A DNA stretch of 64,000 nt from a virus. Both the position numbers and the translations under genes were made by a program. This document shows positions 23,201 to 53,903 of the stretch, piece after piece (position 1 is the stretch's first letter; every line of letters begins with the position of its first letter). The notes below the pieces were generated by a model. It worked only from the letters and a program-made list of their open reading frames with translations, searched no databases and was not told where the DNA came from. The stretch is taken from positions 32,001 through 96,000 of IMG/VR virus record IMGVR_UViG_3300013006_000020. One strand, written 5' to 3'.

Positions 23201-23896
23201 ATGGATCATCGCGCTAAAGTTATTAAAAAACATTTAAACGCTGTCGCAAAACAAGTTGTTGTTCCTCCACAACCTACGCGATTCGATGAGCCTAATCTGC
23301 CACTCGATACAACTCCAGGCCCTTGGTATGATCCTACGCCATCACGTTGGCAATTTTCAATGCTAGATCTGTTGCGAGCGTTTTATAATGGGGTTGACTC
23401 TTTAAGAGCATACATTCAAAAGTGGCTTATAAGCCTTGGTTTAACACCAAGCCTTGCTAGAATATTAACAATAAATCTTACTCTAACAAGCGAAACAATA
23501 TATACTATTGCTAATTGGATTTTAAGACCAGGAAGCGTAAATTTACCACGTGATCTTTTTCAAAACTTACTTAGGGAGCTTTTGTGGCAATTGCTTCCCG
23601 CTAATGTTGTAACCTCCATAGACAGCGATGTATGGGATACTTTTTATTATTTTGAAAACAGAGGCGTGTTTTTCTTTGGTGAAATTGCTGCAGCTATCAA
23701 CAGGGGTTGGACATTACAACAAATAATAAGCTGGTTAAAATTTTCAATTGAAAGAATGATGAATGATAGCGATTGGACTTTTTATTGGCCAGAAACAGTA
23801 GAAGAGGCGCAAGAGTTTATAGATTCTTACGGGGAAAATAATGATACAAACGGACCTGGTGATCTAGTGAATCCAGAACAGCCACCAGTTCCATAA
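23201..23896 (+). CDS. Hypothetical protein with leader + PQPTRF motif
   Basis: Trp-rich helical body; leader MDHRAKVIKKHLNAVA. Confidence 0.65.
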   Translation: MDHRAKVIKKHLNAVAKQVVVPPQPTRFDEPNLPLDTTPGPWYDPTPSRWQFSMLDLLRAFYNGVDSLRAYIQKWLISLGLTPSLARILTINLTLTSETIYTIANWILRPGSVNLPRDLFQNLLRELLWQLLPANVVTSIDSDVWDTFYYFENRGVFFFGEIAAAINRGWTLQQIISWLKFSIERMMNDSDWTFYWPETVEEAQEFIDSYGENNDTNGPGDLVNPEQPPVP

Positions 23897-23909
23897 TCAG
23901 GATATTAAA

Positions 23910-24482
23910 ATGAATAAATTTGAGCAAATATTACGCAAAAACATTCAGGCCGTTACCTTAGATACAGTTCAAAGACAAACAGATCAGGTTGAGAGATTTC
24001 CTGCTGATAAATTTCCATGCAACGTTCCAGGTACTGCAGTTCTAGATGTAAACGCTGTATGTACAGCTGTTAATCAATTAAGTTCAACTGCTGGTAATCC
24101 AGGAAATAATAAGTGCGCCAAGTTAATTAAAAAATATAACACTACGGCGTGCATTGACAGGGACTATATAAAAGCAGATACAGTCATACGTAAATGTGAT
24201 GATTACGTTAACTCCGTGGTCTCCGCGCTGTCTAACAATGCTACAGATGCAAAAAGAGCAGAAGCTAGAAGAAAAGCAAAATGCGATTGTCTAAATTTTG
24301 CCATATACGGAAGACCAGTATTAACTTCTGTTACCTTCCCAGCTGGAGTTATGAATAAGCAAATTGCGGATTTTGATAATGCGTATTGCTCTTATACATA
24401 TCTTGCAAGAGTCTGCGATGAAAGAAGGAAAGTTTCAGATGCCTTAAATGCTATTAGTCCCGTTTGTCGCTTCCCTCTATAA
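23910..24482 (+). CDS. Cys-rich hypothetical protein with leader
   Basis: 190 aa, about 10 Cys; leader MNKFEQILRKNIQA. Confidence 0.65.
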   Translation: MNKFEQILRKNIQAVTLDTVQRQTDQVERFPADKFPCNVPGTAVLDVNAVCTAVNQLSSTAGNPGNNKCAKLIKKYNTTACIDRDYIKADTVIRKCDDYVNSVVSALSNNATDAKRAEARRKAKCDCLNFAIYGRPVLTSVTFPAGVMNKQIADFDNAYCSYTYLARVCDERRKVSDALNAISPVCRFPL

Positions 24483-25098
24483 TTGATTCTAGTTCCCGTG
24501 GAACTTTGTGAAACCGTCCTTTAAGGGATGGTTTTACTTTATTCATTACAGAGCGTCTTTTTTCTAGCGTATCGCCCATCCATTTTCCAGTCTTGCACAA
24601 AACCCAATACTTATATAAAGTGATTGCTGCACCTCGCTTGTATTGCTCCACATTTATTGGAAGTCTAAATTTTTTGATGGTTTTTACAGCGCGCCTTTCG
24701 CAGTCCAGCTCACAAGCTATTGTTTTTTTGGTATATACATTACGTAGTCGTTTGTTGTAATCAGCCTGCCCATTTTCTAAAAGGCTTAATTTATATGTTG
24801 CGTCTTCACCATTACGCAAAAATGTATTGGTATAAGCTGGACAACTCTCTATCCATTGAAGCATATGGCAATACTCATGAACTAAAAAACCAAGCCATTC
24901 ACTAATAGGTCTTTCGCCCCGTGCCACAACTATTGTTTTTTTATTAGAAGATTCAAGAAAATAACCACAGCAAAGTGTGTTTCCTGCTGGCTCTCTTACA
25001 TGTTTAGTATTTTTAATTTTAATTTTGACGCCGTGTTCTTTGGCGACCTTACGGACATGAGCAATAAAGGCATCTACCCTAGTTCCGTAGCTCTTCAT
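24454..25098 (-). CDS. HEXXH zinc metallopeptidase-like protein
   Basis: LVHEYCH plus downstream CELDCERRA. Confidence 0.65.
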   Translation of the reverse strand: MKSYGTRVDAFIAHVRKVAKEHGVKIKIKNTKHVREPAGNTLCCGYFLESSNKKTIVVARGERPISEWLGFLVHEYCHMLQWIESCPAYTNTFLRNGEDATYKLSLLENGQADYNKRLRNVYTKKTIACELDCERRAVKTIKKFRLPINVEQYKRGAAITLYKYWVLCKTGKWMGDTLEKRRSVMNKVKPSLKGRFHKVPRELESIIEGSDKRD

Positions 25099-25172
25099 AT
25101 CCTATAATACACTTAGAAGGATCTTGTTGATCTTTAAAGTGCTTAAATCCCATTTCGTGTATATTTAATGTA
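25099..25172. promoter_or_regulatory. Divergent pair of GTGTAT motifs
   Basis: GTGTATTAT from 25112 (-), 14 nt before ATG 25098; GTGTATATT from 25157 (+), 16 nt before ATG 25173. Confidence 0.6.
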
Positions 25173-27026
25173 ATGGCAAGAATAAAGACAAAAAACTCCA
25201 CAACTTCTACATCCGTACCAGCCAGCGGTTCTTTGCTACGGGGAGAGATTGCGGTAAACATAACAGACAAAAAACTTTTTGTTGGTGACGCATCAGGAAA
25301 TCCAGTAGAAATCACAAACCAGGGCGTTACCGCTGTATACGGCTCAACAAGCGGTATTTACGTTACGCAAGCAACTGGATCGACAGTAATAGGTCTTGAT
25401 CCGGACATTTACGTTAGTGGAGTTTTGCAAGTTAGCGGTGTTATTTCCACAACCGGAACCGCTGGTAGTTTGTTTAACGATACAGCTCTGAGTGTAAATA
25501 TTGGCGGTGGCGCAAGCGGTGTACAGATTGGTCACCCGACCGGAACCGTGGTGATGGGAAACATCGCGGTGAACAGCGGAACCATTTCAACAACCGCGTT
25601 AGCCGGTGATATATTTAACGCTACAGCGGCAAGAATAAACATTGGCGCTGGTGCAAGCGGTGTTCTTATAGGTCACGCCACGGGTGTGGTCACAGTTGGC
25701 GACCTTGCTGTAAATTACGGAACCATTTCAACAACCGCCACTGGTGTCAGTATATTTGACGCGACTGCGCTTCGTGTAAACATAGGCGGTGGCGCAAGCG
25801 GTGTACAGATAGGTCATCCAACTGGAACCGTTGTGATGGGCAACATCGCGGTGAACAGCGGAACCATTTCAACAACTGCGTTAGCCGGCGATATATTTAA
25901 CGCTACAGCAGCACGAATAAACATTGGCGCTGCAGCAAGCGGTGTTAAAATAGGAAACGCGACCGGCGTAGTGGTTGTTGGTGACATTGCCGTTAACAAC
26001 GGAGCGATCACTACAACTGCTGCTACAGCAACACTGTTTAATGCTACAGCTTCTCGTGTAAACATTGGCGCTGGTGCAAGCGGGGTTCTTATAGGTCACG
26101 CTACTGGTGTCGTTACTGTTGGTGATATTGCTGTCAACGACGGAACCATTTCTACAACTGCCGCAACAGCCACACTTTTTGACGCAACAGCCACCACCAT
26201 AACAATTGGCAGCGCTGCTACAACAACAAACATAGCAGCTATTACCGGTAGTCAAACCATCAATATTGGTGCTGGAAATACTGCGGTTTTTACCACCAAA
26301 ACCATAAACATTGGCACAAATGGAGCGGCTGGAAGTATTTCTAACGTAAACATTGGAAATACGGTCGCGGGAGGAACTGTTACAATAAACGGCACATTAG
26401 CTGTGAACAGTGGAACTCTCACAACAGCTAATTCCACAGGCTTCATATTTAACGCAGGCACTTCTCGCGTAAACATTGGTGGCGCAGCAAGTGGTGTAAT
26501 GATTGGTAACGCTACTGGTGTCGTGACAGTTGGTGATATTGCCGTTAACAACGGAGCAATTACTACGACAGCAGCCACCGCAACACTATTCAATGCTACG
26601 GCTTCTCGCGTAAACATTGGCGCTGGCGCTAGTGGTGTGCAAATTGGACATCCAACTGGAACAGTTGTGATGGGAAACATTAGTGCTACTGGACATGTTT
26701 CTGCGGCAAGTGGATATAGAATTGCATCAGCGGCAATCAATGCACAAACAGCAACTGGTTATACGCTAGTTTCTACAGATAATGGTAAAATAATAACCTT
26801 TGATAGCGCCGCCACGCACACGCTAAGAATACCAACTGGTCTGGATATTGGATTTAATGCCACAATAATTCAACTTGGAACTGGACAAGTTACCTGTACT
26901 GGTTTAGCTGGAGCAACAGTCAACTGCTACGCATCTGGAAACAAAATACTAGGACAGCACGGATCTGCAAGCGTACTATGCTATGCTAGCAATGTCTATA
27001 ATTTAGCAGGAACACTCGGAATATGA
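25173..27026 (+). CDS. Tail fibre protein with 47-aa tandem repeats
   Basis: N-term VPASGSLLRGEIAVNITDKKLFVGD; C-term YTLVSTDNGKII...IPTGL..GF...IIQLGTGQVT fibre domain. Confidence 0.8.
   Translation: MARIKTKNSTTSTSVPASGSLLRGEIAVNITDKKLFVGDASGNPVEITNQGVTAVYGSTSGIYVTQATGSTVIGLDPDIYVSGVLQVSGVISTTGTAGSLFNDTALSVNIGGGASGVQIGHPTGTVVMGNIAVNSGTISTTALAGDIFNATAARINIGAGASGVLIGHATGVVTVGDLAVNYGTISTTATGVSIFDATALRVNIGGGASGVQIGHPTGTVVMGNIAVNSGTISTTALAGDIFNATAARINIGAAASGVKIGNATGVVVVGDIAVNNGAITTTAATATLFNATASRVNIGAGASGVLIGHATGVVTVGDIAVNDGTISTTAATATLFDATATTITIGSAATTTNIAAITGSQTINIGAGNTAVFTTKTINIGTNGAAGSISNVNIGNTVAGGTVTINGTLAVNSGTLTTANSTGFIFNAGTSRVNIGGAASGVMIGNATGVVTVGDIAVNNGAITTTAATATLFNATASRVNIGAGASGVQIGHPTGTVVMGNISATGHVSAASGYRIASAAINAQTATGYTLVSTDNGKIITFDSAATHTLRIPTGLDIGFNATIIQLGTGQVTCTGLAGATVNCYASGNKILGQHGSASVLCYASNVYNLAGTLGI
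25437..26690 (+). repeat. About 8 copies of a 141-bp (47-aa) intragenic repeat; copy 6 expanded
   Basis: ggaaccatttcaacaac at 25578, 25719 and 25860 (141-nt period). Confidence 0.85.
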
Positions 27027-27931
27027 TTGTAATACCAAGCGCAAAGCCACGATTAACATATAATCCAAGAGCAGAAATAGCAGAGTTTGGCACAAAGAGA
27101 TCATCTGGTACATTTGGAGCACTTGGTTCATTTCAAGTAGGCTCTTATACTGGATGGTTTAAGGTTAATTGGTGGGATGGAACATCCACTCTTTATAATC
27201 CTGGCATTGGTGTCTCAAGCGCATCAAAGGCTATTTCTGCGCCATATGATACAACAGCTGAAAAAAGATTTTCAATTATACCAACAAACTCATCTGGTGT
27301 TCAGATTGGCCAATTAAGCAATATTGCTTTTGGCAACAGCAGTCTTTCTCCAATAAGTTATGTTGATGTTCTTGGTTTATCTAAACTTGAGAATTTCGCT
27401 TGTGATCCAGGAACTAATTTAACGTCGTACACACACAATGGAAGAATAAAATATTTAACTCTTAGTAATATTTCACTTACATCTATTTCAATTCCACCTG
27501 GAAGCTTAACTCAGAGGATTACAATAGTTGGCAGTACAACCTTTACTACTTTAAACGGCCTAGATAATGTAAAAAACACATTACAAGAATTTGAATTGTC
27601 AACCTGTACATCGTTTACATCTGCTATAGATCTTTCCAACTTCTTAGCGTTATACCACATTGATATTAAGAGCAGTGCAATAACTTCGATTAGAGCGCAA
27701 AACTGCGCGCTAAATCTTGTATACTATTCTGACTATAATAATTTTTCTGGAGGTGCCGAATTTGATGGCTCAAATTTAGATAGAACGGCAATAGTTCAAT
27801 TTTTTAATGATCTTGCAAACGGAAATGGCTATCTTGATGTTTCTGGTACGATAGGCGCAGCATCTTTAACCGCATCTGACATTTTGATTGCAACTAATAA
27901 GGGGTACACAGTACTTAACATCCCAAGCTAA
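27023..27931 (+). CDS. LRR-like/beta-rich fibre-associated protein
   Basis: VNWWDG, LRR-like IDLSNFLALYHIDI..SAITSI, C-term IATNKGYTV. Confidence 0.5.
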   Translation: MIVIPSAKPRLTYNPRAEIAEFGTKRSSGTFGALGSFQVGSYTGWFKVNWWDGTSTLYNPGIGVSSASKAISAPYDTTAEKRFSIIPTNSSGVQIGQLSNIAFGNSSLSPISYVDVLGLSKLENFACDPGTNLTSYTHNGRIKYLTLSNISLTSISIPPGSLTQRITIVGSTTFTTLNGLDNVKNTLQEFELSTCTSFTSAIDLSNFLALYHIDIKSSAITSIRAQNCALNLVYYSDYNNFSGGAEFDGSNLDRTAIVQFFNDLANGNGYLDVSGTIGAASLTASDILIATNKGYTVLNIPS

Positions 27932-28575
27932 TGTCTTATTTTATAACACCAAACTATAGCGTCGCATTTATACCAAAATCTGGTTGTTCAACGATTTCTC
28001 GTGCTGTAATTAAAGCTTTTCAAACAGATGAAGAGTTGCTTATAACAACTGCTTCGTATCCTGTTGGTAAAAATGCAGATAACTCAATGTGGCAAGGTTT
28101 TGTGAAAAGAGAAAAATATCCATCAAAATCAATACTTGCAATGATAAGAAATCCAATAGAAAGATTTCGATCAGCAATAGCCCAATTTCATGCCGTTGAT
28201 GTTAACGCGGTAATTGATTCATTAATTAATGGATCAAAATTTGTATCTGGAACAGCGAGAGCAAGGGAAATAAATGCAAGCACTAATGCACATTTTAAAC
28301 CTCAAATACTATGGGTTGATGCAAACACTAAATTATATAAATTCCCAGATCATATAAATGAGGCGGCTGTTGAAATAGGCTTTACCTTACCGCTTCCACA
28401 AATTAACGTCGCTAGTTTTACAAAGCCAACGCTTGACGAGCAGCAAACGGCAATACTAGAGTCTTACTACGCAGAGGATATAGTCCTGTTTAATTCTATC
28501 ACATCGCCTGGCATAATTAGTGGAGTTATTTCTGCAAATCCACCAAACTTAACTCCACCAAGCGGTGAAGAGTAA
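27931..28575 (+). CDS. Sulfotransferase family 2-like protein
   Basis: FIPKSGCSTI (5'-PSB), IRNPIERFRSA (3'-PB), HFKPQ, YYAEDIVLF. Confidence 0.75.
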   Translation: MSYFITPNYSVAFIPKSGCSTISRAVIKAFQTDEELLITTASYPVGKNADNSMWQGFVKREKYPSKSILAMIRNPIERFRSAIAQFHAVDVNAVIDSLINGSKFVSGTARAREINASTNAHFKPQILWVDANTKLYKFPDHINEAAVEIGFTLPLPQINVASFTKPTLDEQQTAILESYYAEDIVLFNSITSPGIISGVISANPPNLTPPSGEE

Positions 28576-28577
28576 TT

Positions 28578-28591
28578 GTGTATATTAAACT
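28578..28591 (+). promoter_or_regulatory. GTGTAT promoter-like motif
   Basis: GTGTATATTAAACT, 14 nt before ATG 28592. Confidence 0.6.
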
Positions 28592-28873
28592 ATGAAAGCA
28601 AATAGCCATAAAGTAAAGAGGGCGCTTCGTGCCTTGCAGATAGCAATGGGTATGGAGGTGACTTCATACAAAGGAATTAATGTTGGAGACAGAGTTAAGG
28701 ACATTAATCAACAATGCATGCACTTTGGAAGTATTGGTGTAGTTACAGAGATTGAGCCGCTTCCAAACAATAGTGGTTATCTTATTCATTATACGGTTGA
28801 GAATGATGGGCCTTCTTATAGCCCAGGCACAGTACTAACAAAAACAGAAGATCAATTGGAGAAAATATCATGA
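28592..28873 (+). CDS. SH3/KOW-like small protein with leader
   Basis: VGDRVKDIN..C.HFGSIGVVTEI; paralog of next gene. Confidence 0.6.
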   Translation: MKANSHKVKRALRALQIAMGMEVTSYKGINVGDRVKDINQQCMHFGSIGVVTEIEPLPNNSGYLIHYTVENDGPSYSPGTVLTKTEDQLEKIS

Positions 28874-29115
28874 GCGAAGAAGAAAACGAATACTCTTACA
28901 CACCACCACAGCAGCCACAGCAGCCACAAGTGGCTAGCATTTCCGAGGGCGATATAGTTAGCTGCGGAAACAAGGACTCAGTTAACTTCGGCGTTTGGGG
29001 CGAGGTTTTAGAAATTAACTCTGGGATTGCAACGATTAAAATAATGAATCCTGAGTTTCCACGCAACACTGGATGGAATATAGCGGAAAGTGTTGAGAGT
29101 CTGGAGAAGTTATGA
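28870..29115 (+). CDS. SH3/KOW-like small protein
   Basis: EGDIVSCGN....FGVWGEVLEI; C-term LEKL matches LEKIS of previous gene. Confidence 0.55.
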   Translation: MSEEENEYSYTPPQQPQQPQVASISEGDIVSCGNKDSVNFGVWGEVLEINSGIATIKIMNPEFPRNTGWNIAESVESLEKL

Positions 29116-29492
29116 CCGAATCTGAACTTGACGTAATTTTTGCAGCTGAGCAAACGCAAGCCGTTGAGTATCAGGGCAAGAAAGTTACCCTTAACCAACC
29201 AAGGCGAATAGGCAAGGGTGATCCAGGTTACGGCAAGAAGAAGTTTTATGTTTATGTAAAGAATGATCGCGGCAATGTTGTTCGCGTGATGTTTGGTGAT
29301 CCTAATATGGAAATCCGTCGTGACGATCCACAAAGACGAAAAAACTACAGATCTCGTCACGGATGCAGTAATCCAGGACCAAAGTGGAAAGCAAACTATT
29401 GGTCATGTAGGATGTGGGAAGCTAAAAAATCCGTTACTGATTATACTAGTAGCGGATTAATTAAGGCTTTTATACGTGCAATAAATTCTTGA
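29112..29492 (+). CDS. Conserved basic viral hypothetical protein
   Basis: KKFYVYV...V.FGDPNM...RRKNYRSRHGC...ANYWSC signature. Confidence 0.7.
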   Translation: MTESELDVIFAAEQTQAVEYQGKKVTLNQPRRIGKGDPGYGKKKFYVYVKNDRGNVVRVMFGDPNMEIRRDDPQRRKNYRSRHGCSNPGPKWKANYWSCRMWEAKKSVTDYTSSGLIKAFIRAINS

Positions 29493-30287
29493 TTACACAG
29501 TGTTATCAGGTGGTTGATTGTTGCCTTGGTTTTGTTGCAACCAAATACCTAGAGCAATTATTGTTGCCGCGACTGTACCAACTGCAATACCAGCTGGTAA
29601 ACCCAAGCCTGTTAAATCTAGAACAAATGATCCAGCGGCTAAAGCTACGCCAAGAGCAATTATGGCTGCTACGGTTAGACCTAGACCAGCCAACCAATTA
29701 GCAAGTTGTTCGTTGCCACCGTTTGCCAACACATACATTCTAATAGCAGCATTTTGAGCGCCTGTTCGAAGATAGATGGCGGCTATTGCAATAAGACCTT
29801 CCTCGGTTTTATCCTTTAATCTTTCTAAAACTTCATCGGGTGTAAGCCCTAAGCCGTCAGCCGCAACCCCTATTCTGATTTTCACTTCATTAAGAGATAA
29901 AAACTCTGCCCTGCACTCATCGTCTAATTTATCGATTACGTCTTTTAGAATTGAAAATAACTCAACGGCATCCATCCCAGGTTCAGGCTTAGAATTTTTT
30001 ATTCTTCTTATTAATATATCTAAAGCCTTTTTTGCACAAGCACCTGTACCAGACTGATTTTCTTTATATAATTGGTATAATTTACGTAACAGGGGAATTA
30101 AAAGCAAGCCAAGTGTTGGTAATAAGACTGTAACCCACGTGTAATCTTTAGGTTCTTCTTGTCTTATTGAGTCATCAGATTCTAGAGGTCCAATGCCCTC
30201 AAATGTATTTGGCGCTATAACTGTATCGCCTTTACGTGCGGCGATCTTGGCAATGTAGTTGAATAGACGAATGTCGTTTTCTCTCAT
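29493..30287 (-). CDS. Membrane protein with leader, one TM and long C-terminal hydrophobic hairpin
   Basis: WVTVLLPTLGLLLIPLL; about 55-aa Ala/Gly/Leu-rich C-terminal segment. Confidence 0.65.
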   Translation of the reverse strand: MRENDIRLFNYIAKIAARKGDTVIAPNTFEGIGPLESDDSIRQEEPKDYTWVTVLLPTLGLLLIPLLRKLYQLYKENQSGTGACAKKALDILIRRIKNSKPEPGMDAVELFSILKDVIDKLDDECRAEFLSLNEVKIRIGVAADGLGLTPDEVLERLKDKTEEGLIAIAAIYLRTGAQNAAIRMYVLANGGNEQLANWLAGLGLTVAAIIALGVALAAGSFVLDLTGLGLPAGIAVGTVAATIIALGIWLQQNQGNNQPPDNTV

Positions 30288-31276
30288 GTTGATGGCACCA
30301 GTCCTCTAGCTATCTTCTCTAATATCTCTTGTATTCTTTGTAGCGCAGCAGGATTTAATGCTGCCCCAGCCGCACTTGCTGCAGAGGCAGCAGCATTCGC
30401 TGCAGTTGAAGACAACCATACACCAAGAGTGGCAAGGCTTCCACCACCAAGCAAGAATGCGCTGAGGGCAACAAGACCCGCAGCAAGCGCCGCCACTAGA
30501 ACTGTAGAGCCGACGCCATATGAATCACTAAATCCACTTACAAGAAGTGTAGCGGCATCAACAGCTAAAGCTGTAGTCATGGCAGAACCAACACCAATTA
30601 CAAAAGCGTAAGCAAAAGCTTCTAGATCGCCATCATTAAAATATTTATCAATAGCGAATCTAATTTTATCAAGAATACCTTGTGGTAAGTTTGGAAGTCT
30701 ATCTGTTACATACTTTTTAAAAATATCTTTAACAAGTCCAGGAAATGATGTGATACAATTTCTTAGTTTTTTACGAATATCCGACATTTCTTCTGGACTA
30801 TCAACATTATTTATACCTCTAACATTGTCTATTGCTGTACCTATTTGGGTCATAGCAGTACCCCCCTCTTTAAACGCGTCCCACGCCGTTCTTAGCGCTA
30901 TAAGAAGTTCTGTTAATCCCATATTTGATGTTAAACTTTGACCAGTCTGCGATCCAAGAGAACCACCAAGACTTGTCCTGAAGGCATTTGAAACTATTCT
31001 TATAATATCTTCTTTTAACCATCTATTTATTAATTTTGCGCACTCTTTAAACTTTTTTATATTTTGACTTTTAGCCCAAGCAAATGCAACAACTGCACTA
31101 AGCCCAAGTGCCTTAGCTAGCGATATAAAAAAACTATAATCATCAGAATCACTAACCGGCGCATCTTCTTCCATTGGTTCAGCAGTATATAAAACTGTTG
31201 GAATAGGACTATTAACAGCAAATGCGTAATTGTTAGCTATAGAATTTAGTGATTTAATGAAGCGTTGGTTGTTCAC
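30284..31276 (-). CDS. Membrane protein with leader + PIPTVLY, one TM and long C-terminal hydrophobic region
   Basis: Same architecture as neighbour; GTG start 14 nt after GTGTAT at 31290. Confidence 0.65.
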   Translation of the reverse strand: MNNQRFIKSLNSIANNYAFAVNSPIPTVLYTAEPMEEDAPVSDSDDYSFFISLAKALGLSAVVAFAWAKSQNIKKFKECAKLINRWLKEDIIRIVSNAFRTSLGGSLGSQTGQSLTSNMGLTELLIALRTAWDAFKEGGTAMTQIGTAIDNVRGINNVDSPEEMSDIRKKLRNCITSFPGLVKDIFKKYVTDRLPNLPQGILDKIRFAIDKYFNDGDLEAFAYAFVIGVGSAMTTALAVDAATLLVSGFSDSYGVGSTVLVAALAAGLVALSAFLLGGGSLATLGVWLSSTAANAAASAASAAGAALNPAALQRIQEILEKIARGLVPST

Positions 31277-31292
31277 AATAAATAATACACAA

Positions 31293-31499
31293 TCAGATTT
31301 GCAGTAAAAAGAACTTCTTTTTGTGATGAGCCATTTTTGCGTACTTTAGCACATCTATTACAGTATCTATTTCTTCTATAGAAGACAGGAGAACTGATGA
31401 TCCACCTGATTTTAATTCAATACCATGTTCTCTTTCAATTATTTCAATTCCACGAACACGATGAGAGGCTTTAATTTCACCAAAATTATTAGGACTCAT
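31293..31499 (-). CDS. Hypothetical protein
   Basis: ORF from MSPNNFGEIK, overlapping the end of the upstream gene. Confidence 0.5.
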   Translation of the reverse strand: MSPNNFGEIKASHRVRGIEIIEREHGIELKSGGSSVLLSSIEEIDTVIDVLKYAKMAHHKKKFFLLQI

Positions 31500-31680: not shown

Positions 31681-31690
31681 AAATCCTCCT

Positions 31691-31725
31691 AAAAAGCCCA
31701 CCAGAACAGTTACGGACTGATGGGC
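31691..31725 (-). terminator. Rho-independent terminator
   Basis: GCCCATCAG-loop-CTGGTGGGC followed by TTTTT on - strand. Confidence 0.7.
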
Positions 31726-46365: not shown

Positions 46366-46399
46366 ATTAGAGTATAGGTGTATAAATAAAAGTACAGCT
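46366..46399. promoter_or_regulatory. Back-to-back promoters: TATACT (-) and GTGTAT (+)
   Basis: TATACT 46376-46371 (-), 5 nt before ATG 46365; GTGTATAAATA from 46378 (+). Confidence 0.55.
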
Positions 46400-47952: not shown

Positions 47953-47953
47953 A

Positions 47954-48940
47954 ATGAAAAGATCATTAGAATCAATACTAAATAAACTTATAGCCAAAGT
48001 TGAACTAGCGCCCTTATACGACCCTGTTCCATTAGAGCCAGAGGTAGGCCCTGGTGAAGTAGCACAAAAAGGCGGCGGGAGACCTGGAGAACGTGGTTGC
48101 GGATATGCCGTACTTGGAATGGGTCAACCTGGTTTATGGGGTGGTCGTGAGCCAGGATCTTATAACTCAACTGTAAATTATAGTATTGCATATGGAGATT
48201 GCCCGCTTTGCAGGGGAGCTTCACCACCAGCATTTTGTGCTTGCATAGCTGCTTATAGCAATCCGTGTTATAACTGGCACTGGAGTAATGGTACTGGTAA
48301 TTTGAATCCTGATCAAACTAATCCAACCTGGGATCCTCCAGCGTATTCTTCTTATCCGCCTGGATGCCCAAGTAAAGAAGAATTAGAAGGGTTTGGATAT
48401 ACCGAAGAAGAATGGATTGGCAATCCAGAAACTCTTACTGGCCAGCGATACAGATGGTTTGCTTGGGATTATTTAACAAGAATAAGAAACCCAGATGGTA
48501 GCTGGTCTCCTAGTCAACATGCTCCATTGGGATATGAAACTATATGGGGATACGGCCAGGCAAACCCATTTGATCCAGAAGCATACGCTTCTAGCATTCC
48601 AAGAATAACTATGCGTCAACTGTGGGAAGAGTTTTTTTCAGGAATTTATGGTAGATATCGCCCAACATTACTGCAGAGAAAAATGTTGGAGAGCGGATGC
48701 AACGGAAATCCAGGCGAGCAGATAGGCGCTTGCTGCAGTCCAGATGGTGAATTTGGCGGTTTTAGATGTTCTCAAACTTACGGCCATGAATGTCAGGGAA
48801 CCTTTCATTCTGGAAAAACATGCGCAGATATCGGTGGCGATAATTGCGGTTCTGCAATGAATCCCATCCAACAAAACGACCAAACAAAAAAGACAAAAGA
48901 AGCAATGGACATGGTGATGTCTTTACTTAAAAAAAAATAA
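47954..48940 (+). CDS. Array paralog 2 (core A + GACC module)
   Basis: Shares GCPS.E...G.GYTEEEW.GNPETL.G.RY with paralog 1. Confidence 0.8.
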   Translation: MKRSLESILNKLIAKVELAPLYDPVPLEPEVGPGEVAQKGGGRPGERGCGYAVLGMGQPGLWGGREPGSYNSTVNYSIAYGDCPLCRGASPPAFCACIAAYSNPCYNWHWSNGTGNLNPDQTNPTWDPPAYSSYPPGCPSKEELEGFGYTEEEWIGNPETLTGQRYRWFAWDYLTRIRNPDGSWSPSQHAPLGYETIWGYGQANPFDPEAYASSIPRITMRQLWEEFFSGIYGRYRPTLLQRKMLESGCNGNPGEQIGACCSPDGEFGGFRCSQTYGHECQGTFHSGKTCADIGGDNCGSAMNPIQQNDQTKKTKEAMDMVMSLLKKK

Positions 48941-48941
48941 A

Positions 48942-49703
48942 ATGAAAAGATCAATAGAAGACATTATTAAATTAGTGGCTGTAAAACAAGCGGCTCCTCC
49001 ACCAACCCGTTTAGAAAAGCCTAGTACGGTAAAAGAAGATCCGACGCGGCCTATGGCCACTCTTTGTGGAATAACATATCCAGCAGAATATGACAATGGT
49101 ATAGCAGTTGGCCACTACGACGTGCGAGAAGTTTACCGAGATATAATACCTTGGATGTATTGCAGACCTCTACCAGAGGGTGGATGCGAACCACTATACC
49201 CTTCAGAACCTATCGACTCGATGCCATCTCAACAAACCGTAACGGATAGGGATTTGCCTTTGACTTGGCAAAGGGAACACCCAGAGTTTAATCCTAACGA
49301 TCCGGCAACATGGGGTTCCGTATTTGGTCCTGGTGGTTTTGTTGATCGTATGATAAGATACGCTAATTGCCCAAGGGACGAAAACTATCAACCAATACCT
49401 TGTCATAGTGAGGAAACTATTCGTGAATTTATTGATATTGTTCGTCAGTTTTACGCCGTTAGATGCGGATTTGTAGCTTCTCAGACTGGCGCTTGCTGTA
49501 GTCCTGATGGAGAATTTGGCGGATTTAGATGTGATTCAACCACAAGCACTGGATGTGTGGGAAATTTTTATCCTGGAAAGAGCTGTGCAGACATCAATGG
49601 AAACAATTGTGGTTTAGCACCAAATCCGCTTCAGCAAAGCAATCAAGTGAAAAGACCGAAAGAAGCAATAGATATGGTTATGTCCTCACTTAAAAGGTCA
49701 TAA
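48942..49703 (+). CDS. Array paralog 3 (core B + GACC module)
   Basis: VTDRDLPLTWQR.HPEF.P.DP.TWGSVFGPGG shared with paralog 4. Confidence 0.8.
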   Translation: MKRSIEDIIKLVAVKQAAPPPTRLEKPSTVKEDPTRPMATLCGITYPAEYDNGIAVGHYDVREVYRDIIPWMYCRPLPEGGCEPLYPSEPIDSMPSQQTVTDRDLPLTWQREHPEFNPNDPATWGSVFGPGGFVDRMIRYANCPRDENYQPIPCHSEETIREFIDIVRQFYAVRCGFVASQTGACCSPDGEFGGFRCDSTTSTGCVGNFYPGKSCADINGNNCGLAPNPLQQSNQVKRPKEAIDMVMSSLKRS

Positions 49704-49750
49704 AAATTAAGTTGGTATCTGAATAGGTGTATTTTATACAGGTAAATAAA

Positions 49751-50557
49751 ATGTCAGATTCAATTGAAAATAAACTCCGTAATATTTCAAAGTCAGTTAA
49801 AGCACCGCCAATTCCAACTCTTTTACGAAGGCCTGAAAAAGTAGATGAAAGTCTCATGGTCGGTGGAGGCGGTGGTGGCTCTTATAGCATTTGTGGAGTA
49901 GAAATTCCAAATGATGATAATTACACTATATTTATGGTGTACACCACTATAATTAGTGCCATGTATTGCAGAGAAGCACCGGTCGCCGGGTGCTACACCG
50001 TGTTCGTTGGCCAACCATTTGATGGTTCGATAACTGGCGAAGGCCAAGTTACTGACCGAGATCTGCCTTTAACTTGGCAAAGAAACCACCCTGAATTTGA
50101 CCCTGCAGATCCAGGCACTTGGGGTTCCGTATTTGGTCCTGGTGGTCTAGCTGAAAGATATGTAAGATTCTGGAATTGCAACGAGGCTGATGGCGGTATG
50201 GACGGAAATGGACCATGCTCCAACGGCTATGATCTTGCTAAAATTGCACGACTGGTTGAGATAATTCGTCAGCTTTATATTGCTAAATGCGGATTTGCTG
50301 TATCTTCAGCGGGAGCTTGTTGCGCGCCAGCTGGAGAATTTGGTGGCTTTACTTGTACAGAAGTCGCTGGAACAAATAACTGTCAGGGGAATTTTTACCC
50401 AGGACAAAGCTGTCAACAAATCGGTGGCAACAATTGCGGTTTAGCGCCAAATCCACTTCAGCAAAACCCAAACGAGCAAAAGATGCGAAACCGAGACGAG
50501 CAAAAGAAAGTTGCTGGTGAGTTAATAAAACAACTGAGGTTATTTACAAAAAAATAA
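49751..50557 (+). CDS. Array paralog 4 (core B + GACC module)
   Basis: ATG 49751; own GTGTAT motif at 49727. Confidence 0.8.
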   Translation: MSDSIENKLRNISKSVKAPPIPTLLRRPEKVDESLMVGGGGGGSYSICGVEIPNDDNYTIFMVYTTIISAMYCREAPVAGCYTVFVGQPFDGSITGEGQVTDRDLPLTWQRNHPEFDPADPGTWGSVFGPGGLAERYVRFWNCNEADGGMDGNGPCSNGYDLAKIARLVEIIRQLYIAKCGFAVSSAGACCAPAGEFGGFTCTEVAGTNNCQGNFYPGQSCQQIGGNNCGLAPNPLQQNPNEQKMRNRDEQKKVAGELIKQLRLFTKK

Positions 50558-50561: not shown

Positions 50562-50918
50562 ATGAAAAACTACATCGCAAAACTTAATATTGCTGCTGCA
50601 GAGTACTTTACAGTTGCCGGTATGGCAAGACACGTTTGCGTATATTGCTCAGCTTCAGGTTCAGCCTCAGGTTTTTATAAACCAGACCGTGTTATTGTTA
50701 GTGCGACAGGCGATAGATGTAGAGGAAACTATACGCTATCTTATGATATACCAGCAAGCCCTTCTGGAACCTGCGAATACGCTTTTTGCCAGAACGTATC
50801 TGGTGTTGTAATAGGGCGTATTGGGGCTTATTATTGCTCATCACAGCCCCCTGTTTTTAGTACACCAATTCCATCGAGAGTTACACCACAAGCTGCACCG
50901 CCATTTAGAATGATGTAA
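50562..50918 (+). CDS. Small Cys-rich protein with leader
   Basis: MKNYIAKLNIAAA; 6 Cys. Confidence 0.6.
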   Translation: MKNYIAKLNIAAAEYFTVAGMARHVCVYCSASGSASGFYKPDRVIVSATGDRCRGNYTLSYDIPASPSGTCEYAFCQNVSGVVIGRIGAYYCSSQPPVFSTPIPSRVTPQAAPPFRMM

Positions 50919-50921: not shown

Positions 50922-51398
50922 TTATCTTATAAAACTTTCTATGGGCCTGAGTACACGCTGCTCAAGCCCATATGTTTTTCCATAACCAAGATCAATCAAG
51001 TTTTTGTCTTGTATAAGATCTGCAGAAGAACACCATCCAACTATGTTATAGTTTGGTCGCTGACCAACAATTAAAACGTAAACATCTGAAGGTGTTTCGC
51101 TCTTGGATCGTCTAGCCAAAAGTTTACCGGATTTATACTTAGTTGTTTTAATATCAATCTTCTTGCCGTTAAATAGTACATCATCACCGCCCTTTCGGGG
51201 GCTAATTGACATATCTGGATACAGATTTACCGCCTTGCAAAAGGCAAACTCTCCACATATTCCCTCTAGGTCTGTTTCTTCACATGACTGAGGACCAATC
51301 TTTTTATCAGAAACGCCCCCGTTTCTATTGGAGGCGTATCTGTTTTTCGCAAGCCATTCACATATTTTTATTTCAGATTCAGTTAGCTTTACTATCAT
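50922..51398 (-). CDS. Putative PD-(D/E)XK-fold protein
   Basis: G..GEFAF...GGDD....KIDIKTT...DVYVL. Confidence 0.5.
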   Translation of the reverse strand: MIVKLTESEIKICEWLAKNRYASNRNGGVSDKKIGPQSCEETDLEGICGEFAFCKAVNLYPDMSISPRKGGDDVLFNGKKIDIKTTKYKSGKLLARRSKSETPSDVYVLIVGQRPNYNIVGWCSSADLIQDKNLIDLGYGKTYGLEQRVLRPIESFIR

Positions 51399-52569
51399 TT
51401 TTAGGAACTTTCATTACACAAAGATTTTCATTAAGTCCTTCAAGTATAACAGGCCGTCTTCCATTTGAAGTGGCAATTTCATAAAACCCAAGTGTGGCAG
51501 CATACACAGTTCTAAATTTAAAATCATCAATTGCAACAATAATATCACCACTAAATTGCAATGTGTTTTTCATATCTTCTAATGCTGTTTCGTAGGAATG
51601 ACCACCATCAATAAAAATAAATGCTGTTTTGTCTGGGTTATTTATTTTTTCAATTACACCTGGAAGAGTTTGTGTGGACGCTCCTTGTACAAGTGAGATT
51701 GATGTTGATGGACTAAATAGTGGTGATATAGTATTGACAATATCTTTGGCTTCTTCTATTGATAGAGGCTTTTCCTCTGGCGGAAGTTCGTTGACTGATG
51801 CGGAATCAAAAAGATCTAGGAAAAAATACGAAGTTGCTTGTGATGACATCAGTACATCTATCGATGTTCCAAGTCTATAGCACCCAATTTCAATATAAAA
51901 ATCTGGATTGAAATATTTAACGCACTTTATAATGTCATCTAATTTATCTAAAAGAATGCTTTTGATCTTCTTTGCGTTTTCATTTCGCTTAAAAAGAACG
52001 TCAATTTGAACTATGGTTTTACCAAATTTATTTTCACCAACAACATAATGTGGAAGGAAACCAATAGACATCATCTTCTTGGTTATTCCCTGCATTCTTT
52101 CCGAACCTTTATTGTACTCAACAACAGGAAGCTCAAGAAGAACCCACTTTGCCTTTTGTATAACACTTTCGCCACCACAAATTATTGGCATTTCCGATCC
52201 CTGAGTATCGATTTTAATTAGATCAAAATCGCTATCACCAAGAAGATCATCAAGTCTGATTGTCTCTAAATTAATAGTATCGTATTGTCCATCCTCGTAA
52301 AATTGAGTATTTTCTTTAAAGAAAGAAGCGCCTTGACAGGTTTTTTCGGAGCTATTAATAAAGAAGCTTTTGTTTGTTTGTTCGTTACCAAGAGCACAAA
52401 TTAAATAGTCAGCACCACACTCCCGCAATGAGTCTTCGCATCTTGGATTTGCTTCAATAGACAAGATCTTTGCTTGCGGATTTATTGATTTATACTCAAG
52501 AAAGGTTTGTCCTATATTGGCCCCTATGTCAAGTATCTTTTTTGATTCTTTAATTATTTGCTCAAGCAT
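51379..52569 (-). CDS. FkbM-family methyltransferase fused to a second class I MTase domain
   Basis: LDIGANIG, IKIDTQGSE; second domain YIEIGCY..FIFIDGGHSYE..IDD. Confidence 0.85.
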   Translation of the reverse strand: MLEQIIKESKKILDIGANIGQTFLEYKSINPQAKILSIEANPRCEDSLRECGADYLICALGNEQTNKSFFINSSEKTCQGASFFKENTQFYEDGQYDTINLETIRLDDLLGDSDFDLIKIDTQGSEMPIICGGESVIQKAKWVLLELPVVEYNKGSERMQGITKKMMSIGFLPHYVVGENKFGKTIVQIDVLFKRNENAKKIKSILLDKLDDIIKCVKYFNPDFYIEIGCYRLGTSIDVLMSSQATSYFFLDLFDSASVNELPPEEKPLSIEEAKDIVNTISPLFSPSTSISLVQGASTQTLPGVIEKINNPDKTAFIFIDGGHSYETALEDMKNTLQFSGDIIVAIDDFKFRTVYAATLGFYEIATSNGRRPVILEGLNENLCVMKVPKNDSKAN

Positions 52570-53461
52570 TTATTTTTCTCGCTTGCAATATTTTAGCCAT
52601 TTGATTAAATGAGTCTATGCCGTGATTTGGATTTTGAATATCTGCAAAACCAAAGCTGCAGGCTCCAACATTTTCATTTACTAATAGCCGGCAACCACAC
52701 ATTGATGCTTCTACAACGGTACGCGCAGAAGCCTCTTTCCAATTGGGCAAATGCAAGAAGAATTTTGCTGCATTCATTGCTTTGGCAACTTCTTCTGGTG
52801 TTCCAACCCCTATATAGTTTTCTGGATCTATAAGAGATAGATCTCCTCGTCCTATAAACTTTATGTTGTTTCCAAACATATATTGAGCCTCAACAACACC
52901 TTTTGCTTCAGTTATTGCTCCAACGTAAAGTACATTTATAGGTCTTTCGGATTCTGTGTTGTAGAATATCTTGTGATCCACCTTTTGAAAGTAGTTAAAT
53001 CCATTTGGAATAATACCACCAATAAAACGACACCACTCGTGATAATGAAGTGGACTCAAGAAGATATTTGCAAAACTATTGCTCATAAGAGCAGCCATAA
53101 ATGTTTTTATAGCATTAGGTTGATATCTATCACTATCAGCAAGTCTCCAGCCACCGTAATCTTCTGGTGTTGCACCAGTGTATGCGCATTCAAAAACAAC
53201 TGTTGGGGTCTTAGTATTTAAGAATTGTTTTTGCTCGCTAGGACCAAACCATTTTGATCCGCTTGGGTCGTTAAATAGATCAAAGAAAATACAAAGATCA
53301 GCTCTTTCAGGTTCTTGAAATTGATCATTTGGAGTTATAATATTGACGTAATAACCAACGTTCTTAAGAGCCTGTATCAAATCTCTTCCAGTTGTATGAC
53401 CACCGCTCAAATAATAATCATCGCTAAGTGGGCTTATAATAGTATATATATTTGCTATCAC
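52562..53461 (-). CDS. Glycosyltransferase family 4-like
   Basis: LYVGAITEAKG, HLPNWKEASARTVVEASMCG. Confidence 0.8.
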   Translation of the reverse strand: MIANIYTIISPLSDDYYLSGGHTTGRDLIQALKNVGYYVNIITPNDQFQEPERADLCIFFDLFNDPSGSKWFGPSEQKQFLNTKTPTVVFECAYTGATPEDYGGWRLADSDRYQPNAIKTFMAALMSNSFANIFLSPLHYHEWCRFIGGIIPNGFNYFQKVDHKIFYNTESERPINVLYVGAITEAKGVVEAQYMFGNNIKFIGRGDLSLIDPENYIGVGTPEEVAKAMNAAKFFLHLPNWKEASARTVVEASMCGCRLLVNENVGACSFGFADIQNPNHGIDSFNQMAKILQARKINA

Positions 53462-53475
53462 GAGTATAGTATAGC

Positions 53476-53498
53476 AAAAACCGGCATTTCTGCCGGTT
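53476..53498 (-). terminator. Rho-independent terminator closing the 53.5-55.1 kb island
   Basis: AACCGGCA-GAAA-TGCCGGTT plus T-run on - strand. Confidence 0.75.
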
Positions 53499-53522
53499 CT
53501 TGTTTTAAGTGTTTAGTTTTAT

Positions 53523-53903
53523 TTACTTATCGCCAATAAAGTTATCTCTCACTGCAGAAATGTAATCTGCAGCAAGTGTTATTTTACCAAGCATCCAAGC
53601 TTCTATTTCTTTACCCTGTTCTACATGCTGAGCAATCTCGCCAGCGTTTACAATAAGTGCGTTTATATCACTCATAAACATTTCTTTGGTTTCTTCATCG
53701 ACCTCAGAAGTGTCCATTTCTTCCATTTCTGGCATCTCTTCTTCGCCCATCTCCATAGGCATTTGCATAGCCTCTGGAGACATAGCAGGGGCATCATCAC
53801 CCATTTGAGTCTGCTGCATCATCATTGGCATTTGTGTCATGCCCATCTCGTCTTGACCAACGGCGTGTTGAAGTTTTGAAATCAGGTCTTTAATATTTGA
53901 CAT
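53523..53903 (-). CDS. Putative internal head protein (Met/Glu-rich)
   Basis: Leader MSNIKDLISKLQHA; C-term EAWMLGKITLAADYISAVRD motif recalled from large-phage proteins. Confidence 0.55.
   Translation of the reverse strand: MSNIKDLISKLQHAVGQDEMGMTQMPMMMQQTQMGDDAPAMSPEAMQMPMEMGEEEMPEMEEMDTSEVDEETKEMFMSDINALIVNAGEIAQHVEQGKEIEAWMLGKITLAADYISAVRDNFIGDK

Follow-up and report, generated by a model that had tools for sequence, protein, structure and literature searches.

Why would about 15 to 20 late proteins of one phage, most of them unknown, open with a similar short helix and a proline hinge? The phage in question is uncultured, has a genome of 122 kb, and has no cultured relative that we could find; the locus that raised the question lies in a 64,000-nucleotide stretch of that genome (the window). 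An initial annotation had proposed that a modular N-terminal tag loads a variable set of effectors into the head for delivery to the host. Our analysis indicates that the shared leader is real but degenerate. By analogy with the capsid-targeting sequence (CTS) of T4 or the DarB signal of P1, its likeliest role is that of a tag addressing proteins to the capsid or virion, a reading to which we give a probability of roughly 0.45.

The tag consists of a basic amphipathic helix of 12 to 18 residues with the core Φ-x-K/R/S-L-x-x-Φ-Φ-x-A, followed by a proline hinge, either A-P or P-x-P-T, and then by a Pro-rich linker of 10 to 35 residues. A cut after the Ala, at the "hydrophobic-x-Ala" site, would leave Pro at P1′, where most serine proteases avoid it. 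The N-termini quoted in the initial annotation all translate as written (12/12); the start codon of 31276, on the minus strand, is GTG, and an earlier start is possible at 49727 for the ORF that starts at 49751. Net charge ranges from 0 to +5 and is positive in 20 of the 22 leaders, and the mean hydrophobic moment is 1.53 versus 0.74. Judged from Kyte-Doolittle means and residue pattern, the leaders do not resemble Sec or Tat signals (a basic n-region followed by a hydrophobic core of about 10 to 15 residues, or a twin-arginine motif), in line with the initial annotation: the means (−0.95 to +0.65) are too low for Sec, and charged or polar residues recur every 3 to 4 positions.

Beyond the window, ten further tagged late genes form a second cluster (genome positions 3699 to 9304) adjoining the head genes. 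The bodies behind the leaders had been described as unrelated, and 15 tagged proteins are indeed singletons, but BLASTP with the first 30 residues removed also joined two body families: 46999/47954/48942/49751 (family A) and, outside the window, G7094/G7632/G7927. Four of the six examples presented as carrying the full tag are paralogues. The C-terminal helices quoted alongside them all exist, but GLIKAFIRAINS is the end of 29112-29492, a protein without the N-terminal tag.

Table 1. Tagged genes and associated features, with scores from a matrix trained without the gene's own family. Counts of untagged ORFs reaching a score are biased because the family list was picked by eye.
Feature	Coordinates	Strand	Description	Left-out score (bits)	Untagged ORFs reaching score	Shuffle fraction
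Tagged protein	12470..13063	+	197 aa, 8 Cys; leader MQENKSIAKLTELLVQQK, then Pro-rich stretch	10.8	0/166	0.0011
Tagged protein	23201..23896	+	231 aa, acidic, no Cys; leader MDHRAKVIKKHLNAVAKQ; hinge PPQPT, P.PT at residue 23; own GTGTAT at 23185	14.7	0/166	0.0000
Doubtful member	23910..24482	+	190 aa, 10 Cys; second gene of 23185 unit	−2.0	17/166	
Doubtful member	28592..28873	+	93 aa; own GTGTAT at 28578	−0.9	14/166	
Multi-TM protein	29493..30287	−	264 aa, 3 hydrophobic segments; weakly tag-like leader MRENDIRLFNYIAKIAAR ... VIAPNTF	2.4	4/166	
Multi-TM protein	30284..31276	−	330 aa, 3 hydrophobic segments; leader end NSPIPTV; own GTGTAT at 31290	−0.2	13/166	
Untagged first gene of unit	46400-47002	+	200 aa; GTGTAT late promoter at 46378			
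Family A, four Cys-rich tagged paralogues	46999-47952, 47954-48940, 48942-49703, 49751-50557	+	Second GTGTAT in this stretch at 49727	9.8/10.2/9.7/6.1	0/166	
Tagged protein	50562..50918	+	118 aa, 6 Cys; leader MKNYIAKLNIAAAEY	6.8	0/166	0.0066
Tagged acidic, Met-rich protein	53523..53903	−	126 aa; leader MSNIKDLISKLQHAVGQDEMG; last gene of unit	10.0	0/166	0.0013
GTGTAT late promoter	55165..55170	−	Leads unit 54530-55144 / 53912-54517 / 53523-53903			
Tagged GH24/T4-lysozyme-like protein	genome 8459-9304		Identified by phmmer, Pfam, and PHROG			

Almost half of the GTGTAT copies (32 of 65) lie 10 to 40 nt upstream of a same-strand start, versus 1.6 expected, and the late units that they lead also hold the portal, protease, capsid, sheath-like, and tape-measure genes. 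The claim that all tagged genes belong to such units held up: each has its own copy (10 of 22) or lies downstream in a same-strand run, which identifies the tagged genes as late genes. We detected three terminator-plus-promoter cassettes upstream of tagged genes; two of the three share a 119-nt promoter-plus-leader cassette that is 96% identical between them.

An unbiased pairwise comparison of N-termini yielded a component of 15 members, 13 of which are tagged ORFs; unrelated components in a control genome were equally large. With one representative per leader family, the pairwise signal did not stand out from shuffles (26 edges versus 10 to 24; largest component of 4 versus 2 to 6). We also built a leave-one-family-out position-specific scoring matrix from 15 families (37 sequences) and compared it with 166 untagged ORFs and with shuffles. 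In the nine families that passed, the score of the best member from this genome was reached by at most 1 of the 166 untagged ORFs and the shuffle fractions were at most 0.011; given a family list chosen by eye, only the latter are a fair measure. Six families had a member with a shuffle fraction of at most 0.0025, versus 0.45 families expected (about 13-fold; P ~8e-6). The six families that failed were G5288, 23910, 28592, 30287, 31276, and G4523. The helix of 31276 is unsupported, and the G001 orthologue of 23910 scored 7.9 bits (0/166, on the same biased comparison).

The motif is N-terminal, reaching at least 8 bits in 24 of 2068 N-terminal windows versus 13 of 33762 internal windows under a self-trained model. 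It is rare in early genes, the exception on the early/middle strand being 13561-14382 (−), whose N-terminus is tag-like at 8.9 bits, and a 154-kb control relative does not have it (best score, 10.5 bits over all starts and 8.2 bits over 238 ORFs). A model made from the six in-window examples of the initial annotation ranked two unseen genes outside the window, G6381 and G4577, first among nonseeds, and tagged genes accounted for 9 of its top 17 nonseed matches, all with E ≥ 0.15. Across 15 orthologue pairs the leader was no better kept than the body (49.1% versus 47.6% identity). The shared tag as originally described survives in the nine families that beat the shuffles, but it is degenerate and looser than claimed.

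P.PT occurs six times within the first 35 aa, versus 0.79 expected and a maximum of 5 in 200 shuffles; counted by family, the number is four (P ~0.009). Over the whole proteome the motif is not unusual (12 versus 5.0 expected; maximum, 14), and its enrichment is confined to N-termini. The heptapeptide NSPIPTV is found just after the protease domain of the phage's protease-scaffold protein and at the end of the 31276 leader, and it is the only nonparalogous exact 7-mer shared in the proteome (of 59 shared 7-mers). Of 14 protease homologues, 9 keep P-x-P-T or PPT at the post-protease-domain site; P-x-P-T is missing from the G001 orthologue of 31276, and no processing-type motif was seen at the N-terminus of the major capsid protein. 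The hinge is a candidate site for the assemblin-fold prohead protease.

That the phage encodes such a protease, as the initial annotation implied, was borne out by an AF2 model (pLDDT 84.4). Its top four matches among 48,161 chains were the proteases of T4 (gp21; Z 9.0, rmsd 3.2, 137 aligned), VZV (Z 8.8), HCMV (Z 6.7), and KSHV (Z 5.8), followed by the next unrelated chain at Z 5.4. In sequence the protein is only 7 to 13% identical to the proteases of herpesviruses and T4, and Foldseek with the model returned nothing at E ≤ 0.001. All 99 homologues keep His101 and Ser180. The gene joins the protease to a coiled-coil scaffold and contains a nested scaffold start, in frame and with its own GTGTAT; the protease-scaffold family has 1919 database relatives.

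The same leader precedes a T4-lysozyme-like domain, multi-TM proteins, and Cys-rich ORFans, in agreement with the variable Cys-rich and pore-like bodies first described, and this assortment fits ejected cargo. Three tagged proteins have 3 to 5 hydrophobic segments, and Cys content is 3.05% in tagged proteins versus 1.67% in other ORFs. The tagged lysozyme matched T4 lysozyme in the PDB (phmmer E 1.3e-6, stretches 58-96 and 162-233) over both lobes with the catalytic Glu-Asp-Thr region, as expected for GH24. It scored 21.1 bits with Pfam PF00959, slightly below the cutoff of 22.3, and its PHROG matches were endolysin (E 4.6e-7) and "internal virion lysozyme motif" (E 5e-5). It is the only peptidoglycan hydrolase found in a Pfam scan of 151 ORFs (nearly all those of at least 70 aa), and it could therefore simply be the endolysin. 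In family A, the leader helix is followed in each member by PxPT (three of four) or LAPLY; in an alignment of 21 sequences, P21 is invariant and T22 is present in at least 90%. The family A C-terminal helix, ...MDMVMSLLKRK, resembles the scaffold C-terminus (ranks 1, 3, and 5 of 187). Among family A homologues, leader variants are found exchanged from one body to another, as local recombination could produce.

In T4, where the prohead protease gp21 removes it, the leader has a length of about 10 residues and ends at a Glu-type gp21 site (hydrophobic-x-Glu). Like the T4 CTS system (IPI-III, Alt; gp21), this phage has a short N-terminal leader on diverse late proteins and a prohead protease with the gp21 fold. 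Unlike that of T4, its leader is a 12- to 18-residue basic helix that ends in A or K, then Pro, with no Φ-x-E at its end, and is much more degenerate; the head module also differs, the protease being fused to the scaffold and the capsid protein (354 aa) having weak Pfam matches. The cited part of the T4 literature describes diverse internal proteins in which the leader alone is conserved (PMC3012670); here, the same leader stands on unrelated bodies in late units in nine of 15 families, and six fail. In the myovirus P1, according to the cited section, DarB's N-terminal 30 residues are enough for targeting to the capsid of the head, a signal described there for one protein and here for about 15 to 20 (PMC9024508). 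By eye, the DarB helix is similar in ending in ...RAP, and the first 45 residues of DarB showed no measurable likeness to the tag model (1.4 bits, rank 12 of 33 P1 proteins).

In phiKZ-like giant phages, cleavage sites follow Glu and genomes are at least twice as large. In these phages (e.g., SPN3US), an essential prohead protease cuts many head-internal proteins, the propeptide-bearing ejection or inner-body proteins, which are delivered to the cell by ejection, and the cited sections describe no shared helix plus P-x-P-T module (PMC7411985, PMC10052503). N-terminal leaders also load unrelated payloads into the phage-tail-like particle of Photorhabdus PVC and eCIS; as set out in the cited sections, PVC loading depends on the AAA ATPase Pvc15 and places the payload in the tube lumen (PMC11495950, PMC10097599). 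Among the 151 Pfam-scanned ORFs we found no Pvc15-like AAA ATPase, only RecA, a DnaB-type protein, and a small AAA_33-like protein, and unlike the PVC tube, the phage tube should hold a tape measure of 1907 aa. Encapsulin cargo-loading peptides use a short terminal peptide and a flexible Pro/Ala-rich linker to tether unrelated cargo inside an HK97-fold shell; they are usually C-terminal and uncleaved, and their consensus differs from the phage tag. The protease gene, rather than the tag, resembles herpesvirus UL26/UL26.5, which the cited section describes as an assemblin-fold protease, linker, and scaffold with a nested in-frame scaffold gene under its own promoter (PMC11565193); the phage gene has the same protease-linker-scaffold fusion and a nested scaffold start with its own promoter. 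In the phage, release-site and maturation-site cleavages would be putative.

We propose, as a tentative reading held at somewhat below even odds, that this phage lineage sets the tag before a variety of late proteins as an address-and-tether module. The helix would steer tagged proteins into the particle as it assembles, with the procapsid core of the protease-scaffold fusion as the probable destination, and the hinge may be cut by the assemblin-fold prohead protease. The cargo, possibly an envelope-directed set that comprises the T4-lysozyme-like hydrolase, the three multi-TM proteins, and several small proteins rich in disulfides, would travel in the virion until its release at infection. 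The sequence data show the leader in about nine families, the late expression signals, the kinds of body, the protease fold, and the common heptapeptide; loading, cleavage, ejection, and a place in the head instead of in the tail or on the surface are inferred. A more elaborate version, which we consider doubtful, starts from the herpesvirus-like protease-scaffold: a release-site-type hinge (NSPIPTV/P-x-P-T) and a docking helix would have been copied onto fast-evolving terminator-promoter-leader-body cassettes, giving a diversified "ejectosome" whose proteins (a lysozyme, membrane inserters, and disulfide-rich members) enter the procapsid, are clipped free by the protease, and are injected; this capsid-cargo addressing code would share no sequence relationship with the T4 CTS. 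The scaffold-mimicking C-terminal helix of family A would then be the second hand of a two-handed tether.

The resemblance could also have arisen with no addressing at all, through duplication and fast divergence of small Cys-rich proteins combined with the amphipathic N-terminal helices common in short proteins and the A-rich opening codons of highly expressed late genes. Nine of the 22 tagged proteins belong to two leader families (family A and a five-protein group, all starting MSLE), and the pairwise signal lost once paralogues were reduced, the equal conservation of leader and body, the six failed families, and the leader swaps in family A are as this explanation predicts. We nevertheless think it unlikely: six independent families lie far above shuffle expectation, protein interiors and early genes seldom contain the motif and the control genome lacks it, P-x-P-T is enriched at N-termini only, and the lysozyme fold that carries leader and hinge cannot be a diverged paralogue of Cys-rich proteins.

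Two other roles would keep an active helix. As an uncleaved anchor, it would plug into the capsid, neck, or baseplate exterior, and the Pro-rich, possibly glycosylated linker would present a variable disulfide-stabilized adhesin or decoration. The Cys-rich bodies, Pro/Thr-rich linkers, and lack of visible leader processing are compatible with such display, as are the surroundings: at least six genes of glycosyltransferase families together with a GDP-mannose dehydratase and FkbM methyltransferases, some of them beside family A, baseplate/fibre genes directly before 12470, and a fibre-like protein with an Mtd_N-type N-terminus in the 23-31 kb island. It does not seem a probable role to us, however, since a 15-residue helix is a small anchor beside known fibre adaptors, the lysozyme and the three proteins with hydrophobic segments better suit delivered or membrane-acting roles, and the protease-scaffold link (NSPIPTV and the family A C-terminus) points inward. 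Alternatively, the helix could be an in-plane membrane binder common to endolysin, holin-like proteins, and accessory proteins of the periplasm, all working from inside the cell as infection ends. The sole hydrolase, the multi-TM proteins, and the charge and amphipathicity of the leaders would suit this function, but we regard it as very unlikely: a separate TM protein and lipoprotein pair between portal and protease looks like lysis genes, the multi-TM tagged proteins (264 to 330 aa) exceed typical holins, and this role would leave unexplained a dozen tagged proteins that are soluble and Cys-rich or acidic, as well as the protease-scaffold heptapeptide.

If the tag is a loading signal, a widespread group of uncultured phages would have a second, sequence-unrelated answer to the problem for which T4 uses its CTS. 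The signal would explain the purpose of about 20 ORFan late genes, offer a transferable label with which to pack proteins into capsids other than that of T4, and make the use of herpesvirus-style release-site motifs by phage prohead proteases directly testable. If it is not, the case is a caution that short amphipathic N-termini and paralogy can mimic a "tag."

Individual genes compared with G001 differ in how they are kept. The orthologue of 12470 retains the leader and SAPTQ, 53523..53903 is 79% identical, and in 29493..30287 the leader is 61% identical and the body 24%.

Proteins are called tagged here when they begin with a basic amphipathic helix, a proline hinge (A-P or P-x-P-T) and a Pro-rich linker; bare numbers are window positions, and G plus four digits names a tagged gene outside the window by its genome position. 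All 12 N-termini quoted in the initial annotation translate exactly as written. We also found a second tagged cluster adjoining the head genes, with ten further late genes that have similar starts (e.g., MSLEKSIQKLTQVIQAAK, MNSLKAKIEVLRVAVSAAPPPS, and MDFSAINKLNILLGIAKPEPTVF). The claim that the tagged bodies are unrelated stands for 15 proteins, which are singletons in BLASTP with the 30 N-terminal residues cut, but not for G7094/G7632/G7927 or for family A (the Cys-rich proteins 46999, 47954, 48942, and 49751), each joined in that search. Because the four family A proteins are joined, four of the six "full" examples put forward initially, although present, are mutually paralogous.

When all N-termini were compared pairwise without bias, one component of 15 members emerged, 13 of them tagged ORFs. 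With one representative per leader family, the graph fell to the shuffle level (26 edges versus 10 to 24; largest component 4 versus 2 to 6), and a control genome gave components comparably large but unrelated; the eye-catching leader identity therefore owes much to paralogy. A family-weighted position-specific scoring matrix (PSSM) was then built from 15 families (22 proteins here and 15 orthologues in the related record G001), leaving out each family in turn. It supported nine: family A, the MSLE group (five proteins beginning MSLE), G4577, G5902, G8459, 12470, 23201, 50562, and 53903. In each of these, no more than 1 of the 166 untagged ORFs scored as high as the best member, and shuffle fractions were ≤0.011. 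It failed for G5288, 23910, 28592, 30287, 31276, and G4523. Choosing the families by eye leaves the shuffle comparison as the one unbiased measure: six families had a member with a fraction of ≤0.0025, against 0.45 expected among 181 family-reduced ORFs (P ~8e-6).

The motif is N-terminal, reaching at least 8 bits in 24 of 2,068 N-terminal windows and 13 of 33,762 internal windows under a self-trained model; in the 154-kb relative G004 (capsid identity, 39%) all starts scored ≤10.5 bits. A model from the six initial examples alone placed two out-of-window genes at the top of the non-seed list, and 9 of the top 17 non-seeds were tagged, all at E ≥ 0.15. Within the first 35 residues, P-x-P-T was counted six times (0.79 expected; maximum of 5 in 200 shuffles), or four by independent family (P ~0.009). 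The hydrophobic moment of the leaders was twice that of other N-termini (1.53 versus 0.74), and their net charge, 0 to +5, was above zero in 20 of the 22. Every leader is too weakly hydrophobic for Sec, in agreement with the initial annotation. Our own EM motif finder, run over all N-termini, over-fitted and returned no clean motif.

Only one untagged ORF has an N-terminal score of at least 8 bits; its 273-aa product is encoded on the early/middle strand (start, MPRKNKKALINKLVELGK; 8.9 bits; kept in G001). Portal residues 18 to 34, LNKLGKAMAGQDMAVAG, reach 8.1 bits in the tag model and resemble the 53903 leader, LISKLQHAVGQDEMGM. Next to the tagged cluster, a 342-aa late protein contains a strong internal tag-like stretch, LLNKLAAAVHAQPSVS, at residue 105 (12.6 bits); two internal repeats (…WYED..FY…) come after it, and the protein may have a polyprotein-like arrangement.

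Orthologues of 15 tagged proteins were found in G001 at 25 to 80% identity, and these keep the helix pattern and the hinge (A-P or P-x-P-T). Extra conservation of the leader was not seen in this comparison (residues 1 to 18, 49.1%; bodies, 47.6%); leader identity was clearly above that of the body only in G6741 (89 versus 18%), 30287 (61 versus 24%), and 23201 (44 versus 25%). In a family A alignment of 21 sequences, P21 is invariant, T22 and L24 occur in at least 90%, and leader variants have apparently been swapped between bodies.

GTGTAT occurs 65 times, and 32 copies sit 10 to 40 nt 5' of a start on the same strand, where position alone would give 1.6; it precedes the genes for the portal, the 644-aa protein described below, the minor capsid protein, a sheath-like protein, and the tape measure. 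The "GTGTAT-led units" of the initial annotation are thus late transcription units. Of the 22 tagged genes, ten are led by a copy of their own, and the remainder lie downstream of one within a same-strand run. A rough sorting of genes into operons, which put 15 of 22 tagged genes and 70 of 166 others in "late units," was discarded as unreliable; it overlooked a GTGTATC promoter as well as two gene starts, and it overran long minus-strand operons. In front of three tagged genes of the second cluster stands a repeated 71-nt cassette in which a G+C-rich hairpin with its T-run leads straight into GTGTAT, so each of these genes forms its own terminator-to-promoter unit. Two of them share a 119-nt promoter and leader cassette at 96% identity. 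Candidates for recognition of the late promoter are two sigma-70-family proteins, of which one is solid (regions 2 and 4) and the other weak.

The 644-aa protein, encoded between the portal and capsid genes, consists of an N-terminal domain kept in all relatives, a variable linker, and a coiled-coil C-terminus, for which an in-frame ATG with its own GTGTAT and ribosome-binding site provides a separate gene start. The N-terminal domain has 1,919 database relatives, mostly of ~530 aa and without meaningful Pfam annotation, and His101 and Ser180 are invariant in a 99-sequence alignment. An AF2 model from that alignment (pLDDT 84.4) best matched, among 48,161 PDB chains, T4 gp21 (Z 9.0; rmsd 3.2 over 137 residues), followed by the VZV (Z 8.8), HCMV (Z 6.7), and KSHV (Z 5.8) proteases; the fifth match was an unrelated MCE domain (Z 5.4). 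Because of these matches, we identify the protein as an assemblin-fold prohead protease fused to its scaffold, with a nested scaffold gene. Foldseek returned nothing at E ≤ 0.001 for this model, though several herpesvirus proteases were listed, nor for an earlier, poor model from 14 sequences (pLDDT 52). No match was found in a profile search of PDB sequences or among named phages, and Pfam gave only a stray Peptidase_S7 match in 3 of 14 homologues. The arrangement is like herpesvirus UL26/UL26.5, which PMC11565193 describes as a protease-scaffold fusion with a nested scaffold gene; in the phage, the nested start has its own promoter. Also under a late promoter, between the portal and protease genes, are a 144-aa membrane protein and a 99-aa lipoprotein-like protein (MKSIPKLIWPIFLSYSMVAC...), which may be a spanin or holin pair.

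Directly after the protease domain comes ...AQDLMNANSPIPTVQEP, in which NSPIPTV is also the end of the 31276 leader. Of 59 exact 7-mers common to different proteins of the proteome, this is the only one outside the family A bodies and the MSLE leader, and P-x-P-T or PPT is kept at that place in 9 of 14 homologues. Among 187 C-termini, those of family A (ranks 1, 3, and 5) best match the scaffold's own conserved C-terminal helix (...DVAKNLIAHALRRK). NSPIPTV and this helix both suggest interaction partners common to the tagged proteins and the core. The resemblance of the family A helix (...MDMVMSLLKRK) to that of the scaffold (...NLIAHALRRK) may reflect a scaffold-mimicking capsid-binding tail. 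Complex prediction for the capsid protein (13-row alignment) with family A residues 1 to 45 (21 rows) scored 0.00 in both runs, a result that does not bear on binding. The capsid protein N-terminus, AAKQL (also in one leader), showed no sign of a shared cleavage site; distant relatives retain it as a fold element.

In the G8459 protein, the leader and a 35-residue Pro/Lys linker precede a T4-lysozyme-like domain (phmmer against PDB, E 1.3e-6, both lobes matched), with PHROG matches to endolysin and "internal virion lysozyme motif." Three proteins (G3699, 29493-30287, and 30284-31276) have three to five hydrophobic segments each, the majority of the others are small and Cys-rich (3.05% Cys versus 1.67% in other ORFs), and the 53903 protein is acidic and Met-rich. 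A Pfam scan assigned no family to any tagged protein. Family A has just 23 relatives, none of them named or assigned a Pfam domain, and searching the named-phage collection gave no match; for 48942 and 23201, a protein-language-model atlas produced nothing usable.

We regard the shared leader as real but degenerate, borne by about nine, at most 15, protein families. Our preferred reading, held tentatively at a probability of roughly 0.45, is an address-and-tether module: the leader would give varied envelope-acting proteins entry to the particle, which is probably the procapsid, and the hinge would be a possible clipping site. We infer loading, location, cleavage, and ejection of these proteins, and a leader-based virion-loading system, as read from sequence, is unproven. 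The tag would work like the T4 capsid targeting sequence (described in PMC3012670) but is not a member of that class, being without the Glu-type end. It would likewise resemble the P1 DarB signal (PMC9024508) but is not a member; a likeness noticed by eye was unsupported, with DarB scoring 1.4 bits in the tag model (rank 12 of 33). PVC-type loading differs in that its ATPase did not turn up here in Pfam scans covering 151 ORFs. We found no relevant report of a helix-type packaging signal on ejection proteins in open-access papers and bioRxiv.

That the leader is an uncleaved anchor for virion proteins that are exposed and perhaps glycosylated seems unlikely to us; the Pro/Thr hinges and linkers could be O-glycosylation sites, and the hinge motif recurs behind the protease domain. 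Equally doubtful is that an addressing function is absent and there is only paralogy with generic helices, a reading that has the collapse of the N-terminal graph on its side and the shuffle comparison on the other. That these are late membrane or lysis proteins is the least probable explanation; the lysozyme domain and hydrophobic segments are compatible with it, and the likenesses to the head core speak more for the address-and-tether module.

Locations of features in the virus record (L006 and L007 are genome pieces)
Feature	Location	Strand	Remark
Second tagged cluster	genome 3699-9304		
342-aa late protein	L006:2644-3672	-	
71-nt cassettes	L006:7009-7079, 7547-7617, 8389-8459		three copies
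Sigma-70-family protein	L006:10396-10992		
Sigma-70-family protein	window 62096-62650	-	
Portal N-terminus	L006:15662-15780		
Membrane and lipoprotein-like proteins	L006:17340-18070		
644-aa protein	genome 19039-20973		L006:19039-20000 and L007:1-973; not in the window
Nested ATG	genome 20476		
Scaffold C-terminal helix	L007:~930-973		
Baseplate/fibre genes	window 3306-12249		Pfam and PHROGs
Untagged 273-aa ORF	window 13561-14382	-	
Sugar genes	window 14898-20331, 45388-46410, 51379-53461; L006:11815-12837		
Sulfotransferase-like protein	window 27931-28575		counted among sugar genes
PolIII alpha, finger, HhH, and OB half	window 20980-22524	-	
Late-gene island	window 23198-31701		
PolIII alpha, PHP and NTPase half	window 31790-33673	-	
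Family A C-terminal helices	window 46999-50557		last 13-18 codons per gene
53903 leader	window 53903-53840	-	

The record (121,997 bp, of which the window is bases 32001 to 96000) has direct terminal repeats, and mechanical calling gave 187 ORFs of at least 45 aa, plus one added by hand (188). Megablast found no close named relative, only a single 150-nt match, and the terminase reaches at best 25 to 28% identity to named phages. By Pfam and PHROGs, the terminase, portal, 644-aa protein, minor capsid, capsid, sheath-like, and 1,907-aa tape measure genes lie upstream of the window and reach into it; the minus strand encodes glycosyltransferases, SSB, a split PolIII alpha, primase, helicase, RecA, RNR, and ThyX. 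Contigs with capsid-protein relatives (34 to 52% identity; L061 to L069) were binned into MAGs of Gemmataceae, SAR202, Balneolaceae, Saprospiraceae, Omnitrophota, and others; because they are spread over many phyla, the host of the phage group cannot be read from binning. Family A was not found in five of these MAGs. Sugar genes are unusually numerous for a phage: one GT2 and four GT1-type glycosyltransferases, a double FkbM/methyltransferase, and a GDP-mannose 4,6-dehydratase. The two genes for DNA polymerase III alpha are ~9 kb apart, with an exonuclease gene and the late-gene island between them.
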